The notes beneath the pieces were generated by a model. The model saw nothing but the letters and a program-made list of their open reading frames with translations. It was not told where the DNA came from and made no database searches. The position numbers were made by a program, and so were the translations under genes. From assembly GCA_030390025.1 (NCBI GenBank), contig CM059425.1, positions 84,878,001-84,942,000 of the forward strand: a stretch of 64,000 bases of DNA, given 5' to 3'. This document shows, piece after piece, positions 27,309 through 64,000 of this stretch. How positions within the stretch are numbered: position 1 is the stretch's first letter; each line of letters opens with the position of its first letter. This DNA is from Squalus acanthias (lineage: Eukaryota).

Positions 27309-30300
27309 CATAAGAACATAAGAAATAGGAGCAGGAGTAGCCCTTTCGGCCCCTCGAGCCTGCTCTGCCATTCAATAAGATCATGGCTGATCTTCTACCT
27401 CATCTCCACTTTCCTGCACTATCCCAATATCCCTTGATTCGCTTAATATCCAAAAAAATTTCGATCCCTGTCTTGATTATACTTAACGACTGAGACTCCA
27501 CAGCCCTCTGGGGTAGAAAATTCCAAAGATTCACCACCCTCTGAGTGAAGAAATTTCTCCTCATCTGAGTCCTAAACGGCTGACCCCTTATTCTGAAACT
27601 GTGACCCCTGGTTCTAGACTCCCCAGCCAGGGGAAACATCCTCCCTGCATCTACCCTGTCAAGCCCTGTAAAAATTTGTATGTTTCAATGAGACCACCTC
27701 TCATTCTTCTAAACTCTAGAGAATATAGGCCTAGTCTACTCAATCTCTCCTCATAGGACAATCCCCCCATCCCAGGAATCAGTCTGGTGAACCTTTGTTG
27801 CACTCCCTCTGGCAAGTATATCCTTCCTTAGGTAAGGAGACCAAAACTGTACACAATACTCCAGGTGTGCTCTCACCAGGGCCGTATATAATTGCAGTAA
27901 GACGTCTTTACTCTTATACTCAAATCCTCTTGTAATAAAGGCCAACATACCATTTGCTTTCCTAATTGCTTGATGTACCTGCATGTTAACTTTCAGTGAT
28001 TCGTGTACAAGGACACCAGATCCCTCTGAACACCAACATTTCCCAATCTCTCACCATTTAAAAAATACTCTGCTTTTTTATTTTCCTTCCAAAGTGGATA
28101 ACTTCACATTTCTCCACATTATATTCCATTTGCCATGTTCTTGCCCACTCACTTAGCTTGTCTGTATCCCCTTGAAGCCTCTTTGCATCCACCTCACAAC
28201 TTACATTCCCACCTAGCTTTGTATCATCAGCAAACTTGGATATATTACATTTCGTCCCCTCATCCAAATCATTGATATAGATTGTGAATAGCTGAGGCCC
28301 AAGCATTGATCATTGCGGTATCCCACTAGTTACATCCTGCCAACCCAAAAATGACCCGTTTATTCCTACTCTCTGTTTTCTGTCCGTTAACCAATCCTCA
28401 ATCCATGCTAGTATATTACCCCCAATCCCATGAGCCCCAATTTTGTTTAGTAACCCCTTGTGTGGCACCTTATCGAATGCCTTCTGAAAATCCAAATACA
28501 CCACATCTACTGGTTCCCCCTCATCTATTCTGCTAGTTACAACCTCAAAAACCTCTAACAGATTCGTCAAACTTGATCTCCCTTGTTGACTCTGCCTAAT
28601 CCTATTATTATTTTCTAAGTGCCCTGTTACCACGTCCTTAATAATAGATTCTAGCATGTTCCCTACTACTGATGTCAGGCTAACTGGTCTGTAGTTCCCC
28701 ATTTTCTCTCTCCCTCCTTTCTTAAATAGTAGGGTTACATTTGCTACCTTCCAATCCGTGGGAACCGTTGTAGAATTAATGGAATTTTGGAAGATGACAA
28801 CCAATGCATCCACTATCTCTATAGCCACCTCTTTTAAAACCCTAGGATGTAGGCCATCAGGTCCAGGGGATTTATTGGCTTTCAGTCCCATTAATTTCTC
28901 CAGTACTATTTTTTTACTAATATTAATTTCTTTCACTTCCTCATTCTCGCTAGACCCTTGGTTCTCCACTATTTTCAGGAGGTTTTTTTCGTCTTCTTCT
29001 GGGAAGACAGACACAAAATATTTGTTTAATTTCTCTGCCATTTCCTTATTCCCCAACATAATTTCTCCTGTGTCAGCCTGTAAGGGACCCACGTTTACTT
29101 TCGCTAATCTTTTCCTTTTTACATACCTATAGAAGCTTTTACAGTCTGTTTTTATGTCTCTCACTAGTTTACTCTCATATTCTATTTTCCCTTTCTTTAT
29201 CAATTTCTTGGTCCTCCTTTGCTGAATTCTAAAATCCTCCCAATCGTAAGGCTTACTAGTCATTTTGGCAACATTATAAGCCTCTTTCTTTAATCTAATA
29301 CTATCTTTAATTTCTCTTGTTAGCCATGGTTGGGCCATTTTTCCCATGGTGTTTTTATTCCTTAAGGGAATGTATATTCATTGCGAATTATTAATTATTT
29401 CTTTAAATATTTGCCTTTGTTTTTCTACTATCATATCTTTTAATCTAGTTTCTCAACTTACTTTAGCAAACTTGCCCCTCATACCTACATAGTTTGCTTT
29501 GTTCAGGTTTAAGACCCTAGTTTTGGACTTAACTAAGTCACTCTCAAACTCAACATAAAATTCTAACATTTTATGATCACTGCTCCCCAGAGGTTGCTTT
29601 ACTACAAAGTTATTAATTAACCCTGTCTCATTGTACAGTACTAGATCTAAAATGACCAATTCCCTCGTAGGTTCCTTGACATACTGATCTAGAAAACTAT
29701 CTTGAATGCATTCCATGAATTCTTCCTCTGCACTATTTCTGCAAATTTGGTTTGCCCAGTCTATATGAAGGTTAAAGTCCCCCATGATTACTGTATTACC
29801 CTTGTTACATGCATCTCTAATTTCCTGATTCATACTCTGCCTGACACTACAACCACTGTTAGGGGTCCTATAGACTACTCCCATTAGTGTTTTCTGCCCC
29901 TTGTTGTTTCTTAGCTCCACCCAAACTGATTCTACATTTTGTTTTTCTGAGCCAAGATCCTTTCTCTCTACTGTCTTTATTCCCTCCTTTATTATCAGGG
30001 CTACCCCTCCTCCTTTTCCATTCTGCATGTCTCTTCTAAAAGTCAAATATCCTGGAATATTTAGTTCCCAACCTTGGTCACTCTGCAACCACATCTCTGT
30101 AATGGCTATTAAATCAAACCCATTTATTTCTATCTGCGCTATTAATTCATCTATTTTGTTGCGAATGCTTCGTGCATTCAGATATAGTACCTTTAGCTTT
30201 AACTTTTTTCTATTTTTCCCTGATGTCACTTTAGTCACTACTACCCTATTACCTTTGTTAATCTCTCTGTCCCTTCCTGATCCACTCTGCTTATCTTTAC

Positions 30301-57834: not shown

Positions 57835-58170
57835 TAGCCCAACTCGGTGGTTTAGAACAATGTCCTTTCACCTCTAGACTTCAATCCAACCCAGACTGAT
57901 GGGATAAAAGTCTCTCTCTGACAGCTGTAAGTGAAGTGAATTTCAGGAGTTGCACTCCAGTACCTGGTGGGCAAAAACTCATAACCCGAAACATTCAGTA
58001 GTAAATTGACAACTTAACTCAGAGAGGAGGGCTTTTGTAGGAATGGAAATTCTACGATGCTGTAGAGCTATGTGATGGTGTCAAGGTATGTTGTTGGAGC
58101 CGAGTGGGGGGAGCTTTACTTTGAATCCAGCCTGTGCTGCCATTGACGTGAGAGTGCCTAATACTGTTGT
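57835..58170 (+). mobile_element. LF-SINE-like ancient SINE, degenerate
   Basis: CCTTTCACCTCTAG...AATCCAACCCAG...AAAGTC...CTGACAGCTGT...GTGAAGTGA...CTCCAGTACCTGGTGGGCA follows the LF-SINE consensus order as remembered. A weaker piece lies at about 59797-59915. Confidence 0.5.
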
Positions 58171-58304
58171 TGCTCACAAGATCACAACATACTTATGGAT
58201 GAAGGCCATTTGGCCCATCCAACCAGAACAACCGTACACTCCCCCCATTGCTGCATTTAATTGTTTCTGAAATGATTCCAGGACTTCTGCCTCCACCACT
58301 CTGC

Positions 58305-58717
58305 CCTGTTCCTGCTGTTCCAGCCCCGGTCCTGTTCCTGCTGTTCCAGCCCCGGTCCTGTTCCTGCTGTTCCAGCCCCGGTCTTGTTCCTGCTGTTCCA
58401 GCCCAGGCTCTGTTCCTGCTGTTCCAGCCCCGGTCCTGTTCCTGCTGTTCCAGCCCCGGTCCTGTTCCTGCTGTTCCAGCCCCGGTCCTGTTCCTGCTGT
58501 TCCAGCCCCGGTCCTGTTCCTGCTGTTCCAGCCCCGGTCCTGTTCCTGCTGTTCCAGCCCAGGCTCTGTTCCTGCTGTTCCAGCCCCGGTCCTGTTCCTG
58601 CTGTTCCAGCCCCGGTCCTGTTCCTGCTGTTCCAGCCCAGGCTCTGTTCCTGCTGTTCCAGCCCCGGTCCTGTTCCTGCTGTTCCAGCCCCGGTCCTGTT
58701 CCTGCTGTTCCAGCCCC
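58305..58717. repeat. 26-bp minisatellite, about 16 copies
   Basis: Unit CTGTTCCTGCTGTTCCAGCCCCGGTC; variant ending AGGCT in units 4, 10 and 13. Confidence 0.97.
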
Positions 58718-58844
58718 AATCTAGTGCATTAGCTGAGATCAGTTAACTTAGCACAGAGCAGGGATCAATCCTGGGACACTCCTGGTCTCAATGACTCAGC
58801 TACACATTGGATAAACTCACTGAGTCATCGGGAGAAAAGATTAA

Positions 58845-62180: not shown

Positions 62181-62375
62181 TTGAACAGGATAGTTAGGCT
62201 AAATACGTGGCTTGAGCAGTGGTGTAAGAGGGAGGGTTTTAAATTTTTGAGGCATTGGGACCAGTTTTGTGGTAGGTGTGACCTATACAAAAGGGACGGT
62301 CTACACCTGTGCAAAGATGGAACTGATGTTCTCGGGGTAAATTTTGATAAAGCAGTTCGGGAGCATTTAAACTAG
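62181..62375 (+). CDS. CR1 ORF1 C-terminus (SGNH/esterase-like domain), 5'-truncated
   Basis: LNTWLEQWCKREGFKFLRHWDQF...LYKRDGLHL...LN*, with the DGLH motif typical of CR1 ORF1 esterase domains. Confidence 0.85.
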   Translation: MNRIVRLNTWLEQWCKREGFKFLRHWDQFCGRCDLYKRDGLHLCKDGTDVLGVNFDKAVREHLN

Positions 62376-64000
62376 TATGGCAGGGGGCTAGAAACCCATG
62401 TAGTGAAATAGAGGAAAGTGAAAGGCAGACAGAAATAAATGGTAAAAAGGAGAGGAACAAAAAACAAAGGGCCAAACTAATTCATAAAAAATGTGAGCAT
62501 AAAAAAAGCCTGAGGGTTTTATACCTTAATGCGAGAAGCATCAGGAACAAGGTAGATGAATTAGCTGTGGAAATAGAGGTTAATAATTATGATCTAATTG
62601 GGATTACGGAAACATGGTTGCAGGGTGAGCAGGGCTGGGAGCTTAACATACAGGGGTATTCAGTATTTAGGAAGGATCGACAAAAAAGAAAGGGAGGAGG
62701 GGTAGCATTGCTGGTAAAAGAGGGGATAAATGCAATTGAAAGGAAGGATATTAACTCAGTTAATACAGAATCTATATGGGTGGAGCTAAGAAATAGCGAG
62801 GGGCGAAAAACATTAATAGGAGTGGTATATAGGCCTCCAAATAGTAAAATAGAGGTTGGGGAGGGCATCACGAGGGAAATTAGAGAAGCGTGCAATAAGA
62901 GCACAGCTGTCATCATAGGTGACTTTAACTTACATATAGATTGGACTAGCCTAATCAGTAAAAATAATGAGGAGGAGGAATTCCTTGAGTGTTTAAGGGA
63001 TGGTTATCTGGATCAATATGTCGAGGAACCAACTCGGGAACAGGCTATATTGGACTGGGTACTGTGCAATGAGAAGGGACTAATTAGTAATCTTGTTGTA
63101 CGGGGACCCTTGGGTCAGAGCGATCATAACATGATCGATTTCTCACTCGAAATGGAGAGCGAAGAAATTGACTCAGAGACTCAGGTCCTGAATTTAAACA
63201 AGGGGAATTATGATGCCATTAGACGGGAACTGAGTAGGTCTGATTGGACAACGTTCCTGGGAGGACTGGAGGTAGATAAACAATGGCAAGCATTTAAAGA
63301 TAGAATGACAAAATTGCAAAAATTGTTTATACCAATCTGGCATAAAAGGAAATCTAAAAAGGTGACTCAACCGTGGATAACAGGGGAAATTAGAGACAGC
63401 ATAAAATCCAAAGATAGGGCGTATAAAATAGCCAAAAAACGCGCCAGAGCGGAAGATTGGGAACAGTTTAAGATAGAGCAAAGGAGGGCAAAGGGCTTAA
63501 TCAAGAAGGGCAAAATAGCTTACGAAAGCAAGCTGGCGGAAAATATAAAAACTAACTCCAAAAGCTTTTATAAGTATATCAAGAGGAAAAGACTGGTGAA
63601 AACCAAAGTTGGTCCATTGCAGTCAGATACGGGGGAATATATAATGGGAAATAAGGAAATGGCAGACCAACTAAATGCATACTTTGGGTCAGTCTTTACG
63701 AAGGAAGACACAAAAAACCTCCCTGGGATATCGGGAAAAATAGGGACATTGGCAAAGGAGGAACTGACGCAAATCAATATCTCTAAGGATATGGTGTTAA
63801 GGAAGCTAAAGGGATTGAAGGCGGACAAATCCCCAGGGCCTGATAACATGCATCCTAGGGTACTGAAGGAGGTGGCCCTAGAGATAGCGGATGCACTAAG
63901 CATGATTTTTCAGAATTCATTAGACTCGGGAACAGTGCCCATGGATTGGAGGGTAGCTAACGTTACCCCACTATTCAAAAAGGGGGGTAGGGAAAAAGCA
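62351..64000 (+). CDS. CR1 ORF2 (APE endonuclease, linker, start of RT), uninterrupted to the window edge
   Basis: Translated by hand: open after TAA (62348-62350) through LYLNARS, ITETW, GGGVA, YRPP, GDFN, SDH, PWIT, KSPGPD and DWRVANVTPLFKKG. Absent from the ORF track, presumably because no stop lies inside the window. Confidence 0.93.

Follow-up and report, generated by a model that had tools for sequence, protein, structure and literature searches.

ORF1 and ORF2 of a LINE family in Squalus acanthias that we assign to CR1 meet at a slippery heptamer placed directly before the ORF1 stop codon. On the basis of its conservation we consider it likely, with a probability of roughly 80%, that CR1 ORF2 is translated by a programmed −1 frameshift at U_UUA_AAC, giving an ORF1–ORF2 fusion of roughly 1,300 aa. 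In the window, the whole 64,000-nt stretch of DNA that was analysed, ORF1 ends CAT TTA AAC TAG. The heptamer T_TTA_AAC (62366..62372, + strand), an X_XXY_YYZ sequence in the ORF1 phase, adjoins the stop codon, which is TAG in this copy (62373..62375, +), as the sequence-only reading had stated; it is the single TTTAAAC-stop site in the whole window. Upstream lies a 3′ remnant of CR1 ORF1 (62183..62375, +), identified by its translation, Pfam and sister copies as the C-terminus of an SGNH esterase, with a DGLH motif at 62295-62306 (+; ...DGLHL...) and the end ...EHLN*. The ORF2 frame is shut upstream by a TAA six codons 5′ of the heptamer (62348..62350, +); read in the −1 frame, it then stays open from 62351 as far as the edge of the window, also as that reading had it. 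A variable charged linker (62372..62521, +) leads in this frame from the heptamer to the endonuclease; it has 52 codons counted from TTT, compared with 37-88 in relatives. The APE-type endonuclease of ORF2 (YLNARS...ETW...GDFN...SDH; 62522..63127, +) lies wholly 5′ of the first in-frame ATG (63131..63133, +). Counted from TTT, NARS, ETW, GDFN and SDH of the window family stand at codons 55, 82, 185 and 252, the Pfam endonuclease (Exo_endo_phos) spans residues 55-254, and the first Met is codon 256, so that the first ORF2 ATG does follow the SDH motif, as had been noted. ORF2 then continues (63134..64000, +) toward the reverse transcriptase, as followed in locus L035. The nearest AUG of the window family is in the wrong frame: it opens a Met-Ala-Gly-Gly-stop in the third frame (62377..62391, +), which is not conserved and cannot yield ORF2.

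Intact copies elsewhere in the genome allowed the element to be read as a whole. The 40 best-scored of 734 genome candidates were 100% identical to the window over 62190-62700. In L035, ORF2 was open to the equivalent of window position 65317 and was followed by a CR1 3′ UTR hairpin and CTATGTAT-type repeats. All five copies that were read through to the end had 983 open ORF2 codons with the PQG and ADD reverse transcriptase motifs, and all five ended in a 3′ hairpin with short tandem repeats and without poly(A). Full-length sister copies encoded a 315-aa ORF1 with a Cys-rich region, a long helix or coiled coil and the SGNH esterase, and the ORF1 profile matched the ORF1-encoded protein of PDB 4c1b (E 1.6e-40), which we take to be the ZfL2-1 esterase. 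APE endonuclease and reverse transcriptase in ORF2, Cys-rich region, coiled coil and SGNH esterase in ORF1, and a hairpin with short tandem repeats but no poly(A), together with frequent 5′ truncation, a CR1-type trait, are all what is expected of the CR1 clade. Sawshark, rays and sharks supply the nearest named relatives of ORF1. We classify the element as a young CR1 LINE family, an assignment based on its ORF1 relatives (sharks, rays and alligator) and on features generally associated with CR1. The window copy is 5′-truncated at 62183; from that point onward to the 3′ end it matches a full-length copy without a difference. Since it lacks the start of ORF1, it is a faithful relic that is not itself expected to produce a fusion; since it is identical to intact full-length elements, its layout is the working state of the family. 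The missing AUG is thus the state of a recently active family rather than decay. Older CR1 pieces that share 65-94% identity with the young element also lie in the window, at 27316-30200 (−) and at 11 more places between 6225 and 61897; all of these are without the junction. At 58170-58750, units of roughly 36 nt are repeated in tandem, with several frames open.

Across the genome, 26,395 sites end in Leu/Phe-Asn-TRR at the expected distance from the esterase motif DGLHL, and 24,799 of these read exactly TTTAAACTAR. The corresponding reversed controls gave 4 and 0 sites; with 24,799 against none, the junction is not a product of chance, and the S. acanthias genome holds about 25,000 CR1 copies that contain it. 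We rejected the existence of a large family with a different heptamer because TTTAAAGCARTRA was found in only two copies and a base other than T at heptamer position 1 in only 351, the 100 listed among them being scattered over many families. Among 50 loci picked by the esterase motif alone, 39 had the exact TTTAAACTAR and 11 were point-mutated or interrupted; a further 20 loci, pre-selected on the junction, were consulted for phase and downstream sequence alone. From a metagenome scan came 30 loci, 11 of which cover an amniote-type ORF1 end. Eight of the 11 carried a complete TTTAAAC-TAG or TTTAAAC-TGA, one lay on a contig that ends past the stop, and two were mutated. The nearest named proteins of these contigs are from alligator; presumably the hosts are bird-like.

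We then grouped 79 copies into 24 linker clusters with a mean linker identity of 0.60; three copies (interrupted, deleted, or at a contig end) were dropped. TTTAAAC plus a stop was kept in 22 of the 24 clusters from the shark's own genome and the amniote-type contigs, counts that are not independent trials since the clusters share ancestry, and 6 of the 15 own-genome clusters were drawn from lists pre-selected on the heptamer or on L-N-stop. It was kept in eight of the nine amniote-type clusters, whose ORF2 is 41-42% identical to that of the window family. Four intact shark elements were 47-72% identical to one another in ORF2, and 39-44% identical to the amniote type. The stop itself varied (TAG in 11 clusters, TAA in 9, TGA in 2). 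Two single-copy clusters had TTTAAAG-CAR instead. Two related old copies in the S. acanthias genome (L186, which is the same place as L084, and L187) have the same form, their ORF1 ending T_TTA_AAG CAA TAA; these heavily decayed copies possibly represent a small lineage with a variant heptamer. Among database ORF1 proteins, an LN end was present in 30 of 34 of the DGxHL type and in none of 36 of the teleost-like DGxHP type. Scans of viral contigs and of genome contigs returned no relative, and among distant metagenome LINEs a degraded esterase LINE (L109) and an element whose ORF2 has its own AUG (L096) were without the signal. Three metagenome matches (L105-L107) were rejected as relatives, being bacterial-like esterases. 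By this comparison the signal is real and deeply conserved from sharks to the amniote type.

The constraint on the junction acts on nucleotides. The first base of the heptamer was T in all 24 clusters even though its codon encodes A, G, D, H, T or C. The Leu codon was TTA in 24 of 24 clusters, compared with 17 of 127 (13%) upstream Leu codons, and the Asn codon was AAC in 22 and AAT in none, against an upstream background of 27:26. For comparison, 15 ordinary four-fold columns of the last 24 codons had conservation values of 0.33-0.93. Thus the heptamer does not vary freely at its synonymous positions, contrary to one outcome by which the sequence-only reading would have been refuted. The absence of AAT is not explained by dual coding of L-N and F-K-L, because such coding would still permit AAT; AAC shifts better than AAU on eukaryotic ribosomes.

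The phase of ORF2 relative to the heptamer was equally constant. In 51 of 133 distinct copies the −1 frame was open from the heptamer to the endonuclease, with 14 different linker lengths (37-88 codons), as conservation of the −1 phase would have it; four were open in the ORF1 frame behind the stop and none in the +1 frame, 48 were broken and 30 had no recognisable endonuclease motif. The ORF2 frame was shut by a stop 2-6 codons 5′ of the heptamer in 18 of the 24 clusters. We found no near-cognate start common to the 24 clusters. The first Met of the four intact ORF2s was at codons 256, 167 and 179, that is, in or behind the endonuclease, and in the fourth at codon 20. A usable ORF2 AUG is therefore absent in three of the four, the window family included, and the earlier view that AUG initiation would lose the endonuclease stands to that extent. 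A Met somewhere in the linker was present in 25 of the 51 open copies and absent in 26. The junction thus combines an in-phase X_XXY_YYZ heptamer, conserved at synonymous positions, with a downstream ORF that opens in the −1 frame from the heptamer and lacks a start of its own, as at a canonical −1 site, with non-conserved linker AUGs in some lineages.

The best of the competing explanations, although we regard it as unlikely, is termination-reinitiation, in which ribosomes would stop at the end of ORF1 and begin again close by in the −1 frame, using an AUG where there is one or a non-AUG codon, as in L1, the motif and the G-tract described below would be the restart signal, and ORF2p would be a separate protein. 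There is precedent in SART1, which uses a UAAUG stop-start (available portions of PMC3708506 and PMC3894237), and the lack of a detectable frameshift-type structure downstream would fit. One shark lineage (L038, L056, L068, L069, L073-L075) has, in addition to the heptamer, such a UAAUG overlap in the ORF2 frame, and an AUG stands 2 nt past the stop in L086 and L089, both amniote-type elements; frameshifting and restart could coexist in these. However, an ORF2-frame AUG near the junction was found in only four of the 24 clusters and at differing places, and in the window family no AUG overlaps or adjoins the ORF1 stop in the ORF2 frame. Reinitiation would also leave unexplained why the base before the Leu codon, TTA and AAC are frozen and why the frame opens exactly at the heptamer.

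It is much less probable that the slippery pattern is incidental, either because LN is required at the C-terminus of ORF1p or because the site is recognized as RNA or DNA, with ORF2 starting by other means (an IRES or a non-AUG codon). L314 closes the last helix (296-314) of the predicted esterase, so conservation of the terminal Leu may partly reflect the protein, and LN is invariant in an alignment (A1) whose rows were picked for LN ends. Nevertheless, related teleost esterase ORF1s end freely, and a protein constraint cannot freeze the first T, TTA or AAC, with AAT in none of the cluster majorities. A non-translational site, for its part, would not require the −1 phase to be held over 14 linker lengths.

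Stop readthrough, splicing or transcript slippage, by which a longer G-run would set ORF2 in the ORF1 frame or the RNA would gain or lose bases, is largely refuted, because, although ORF2 falls in the ORF1 frame in several copies whose G-run is 8 bases long, the G-run length that keeps the −1 phase is in the majority (82 among 100 matches listed; 23 of 30 loci) and two raw RNA runs had no joints or indel at the junction (5% cut-off, depth about 85-120). Of the four copies open in the ORF1 frame, three had a lengthened G-run region and one came from a lineage otherwise in the −1 phase; we rejected the 8-G arrangement as the true layout of older lineages since it is found in a minority of copies. 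The RNA reads mix many copies and both strands, which limits their power, and they exclude splicing or editing only weakly. Phase-breaking G-run variants were seen in six of the seven first-listed copies, from 0-16 Mb of contig C1, and in 12 of the 93 other copies listed; homopolymer instability may be higher near the start of C1.

A canonical −1 site has a stem-loop or pseudoknot 5-9 nt downstream of the heptamer, and none was found here. The ATGG...CCAT stem at 62377-62399 that the sequence-only reading had put forward can be drawn (−7.8 kcal/mol), but its stability does not exceed that of shuffles (z −0.39), and it lacks conservation. Downstream folding of the 24 cluster representatives gave a mean z of −0.34, with two of 24 below −2; few C residues are available for pairing, and pseudoknots are outside the folding model. 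Nor was conserved structure detected across positions −60 to +60 (mean z −0.15). Given the lack of the canonical stimulator, the frameshift may be inefficient. A G-tract (62383..62387, +) that starts 10 nt past the heptamer is conserved instead. G occupied positions 18-22 in 83-96% of the 24 representatives. All 24 clusters had Gly at ORF2 codon 7, 21 of them as GGG (background 38%), and the base preceding it was G in 23 of 24 despite a variable residue. These features make the G-tract a better candidate stimulator than the stem. A G-quadruplex was predicted in nine of the 24 representatives, compared with 8.5% of shuffles, and the window family was not among them; a G-quadruplex may act as a stimulator, but is doubtful as the general one. 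In synthetic constructs G-quadruplexes do promote frameshifting; a natural case was not known in 2016, according to one paper (PMC5009743). We rejected a long-range duplex between the G-tract and the C/U-rich 3′ UTR: it ranked first in only one of four intact elements, and the two do not covary, because lineages with different G-tracts have the same 3′ UTR. Most lineages are also rich in G at bases −8 to −2 before the heptamer (20 of 22 have G at −3, and 19 of 22 at −2).

From the layout of the junction and its conservation we infer a programmed −1 frameshift that would proceed as follows. In a minority of ribosomes, tRNA-Leu and tRNA-Asn would slip from UUA AAC to UUU AAA. Most ribosomes would finish ORF1 at UAG, yielding abundant ORF1p, and the slipped ones would read the transframe peptide EHLN-LVWQG and then the flexible linker, the endonuclease and the reverse transcriptase. 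The predicted product, ORF1p–linker–endonuclease–reverse transcriptase, would comprise 315 + 981 = 1,296 residues. Slippage would set a low ratio of ORF2p to ORF1p and tether the enzyme to the ORF1p particle. With less assurance, we suggest that the ribosome would pause because of the adjacent stop and the G-tract, the latter through a bound protein or a weak G-quadruplex, and not because of a classical pseudoknot. A broader proposal, which we offer tentatively and consider rather doubtful as a whole, is that heptamer, stop and G-tract at a 10-nt spacer form a structure-free signal, stimulated by a bound protein or a G-quadruplex, that drives a Gag-Pol-like ORF1p–ORF2p fusion in vertebrate CR1s from cartilaginous fish to amniotes. 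This would add a new class to the natural frameshift stimulators and might be a switch by which the host or ORF1p controls retrotransposition.

Frameshifting in LINEs would not be new in kind, given the precedent of Dictyostelium TRE5-A and TRE3-A, both of which need a −1 frameshift for ORF2 according to a figure legend in a review (PMC5911963). Like the shark element, these are non-LTR retrotransposons of the APE type and have two ORFs. They belong to another clade and another host, and the passages on them mention no esterase ORF1 and name neither a slippery heptamer nor a test; in CR1, by comparison, the overlap is minimal and the heptamer directly precedes the stop. The identical in-phase heptamer leads to the polymerase ORF at the nidovirus ORF1a/1b junction (U_UUA_AAC in IBV and PRRSV), with the difference that in the viruses a pseudoknot lies about 5 nt downstream and at the CR1 site none can be detected, and that CR1 is a LINE (PMC5009743 and PMC9000960). 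On mammalian ribosomes, few heptamers are described as shifting more readily than U_UUA_AAC (PMC5009743). The arterivirus nsp2 site, as treated in sections of PMC9000960, likewise has no RNA structure and a motif at a 10-nt spacer; that motif is C-rich and is used with PCBP and nsp1-beta, whereas CR1 has a canonical heptamer and a G-rich motif without a known binding protein, so that the likeness is an analogy only.

Among vertebrate elements, CR1s with an esterase ORF1 (ZfL2-1-type esterase) share the Cys-rich N-terminus, coiled coil, SGNH esterase, ORF2 with APE and reverse transcriptase, 3′ hairpin and short tandem repeats, and their teleost relatives of the DGxHP type differ in having no LN end. 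L1 reinitiates across a spacer to make a separate ORF2p, with which the fusion predicted here contrasts. L1 and SART1 resemble CR1 in having a bicistronic APE-type LINE RNA with low ORF2 output; SART1 differs by its UAAUG termination-reinitiation (PMC3708506, PMC3894237, each in part), and neither has been described with a slippery site. The searchable literature, which did not extend to Haas 1997, Kajikawa 1997, Kojima 2005 or Kapitonov and Jurka 2003, contained no report of a CR1 frameshift. The passages on CR1 in PMC11835228 and PMC4255032 do not mention frameshifting, and the available text of PMC5009743 does not mention CR1.

Among the repeats of the chicken genome, according to one of these passages, CR1 is dominant (PMC11835228). 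How ORF2 initiates was called an open and ‘interesting-and-important’ question in a commentary of 2013 on LINE translation, which, in the part available, did not discuss frameshifting (PMC3894237). The conservation of a viral-type slippery site makes LINE ORF2 translation testable with a short reporter insert. A −1 frameshift at the heptamer would redefine the annotated start of CR1 ORF2 and guide the design of a working CR1 retrotransposition assay, and the junction points to a frameshift stimulator other than a pseudoknot.

Several protein database records also contain pieces of this junction or of ORF1. Two of them (P0034 and P0050) run through the junction as F-K-L, making the −1 frame visible in mutated copies of other species. 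A CR1 ORF1 that is 56% identical and has the LN end is labelled as a Pseudomonas aeruginosa SGNH hydrolase (P0014), likely host contamination in a bacterial record. CR1 ORF1 pieces are also included in ray TMEM204 and ABHD14A gene models (protein group P0034, P0050, P0051, P0052 and P0093).
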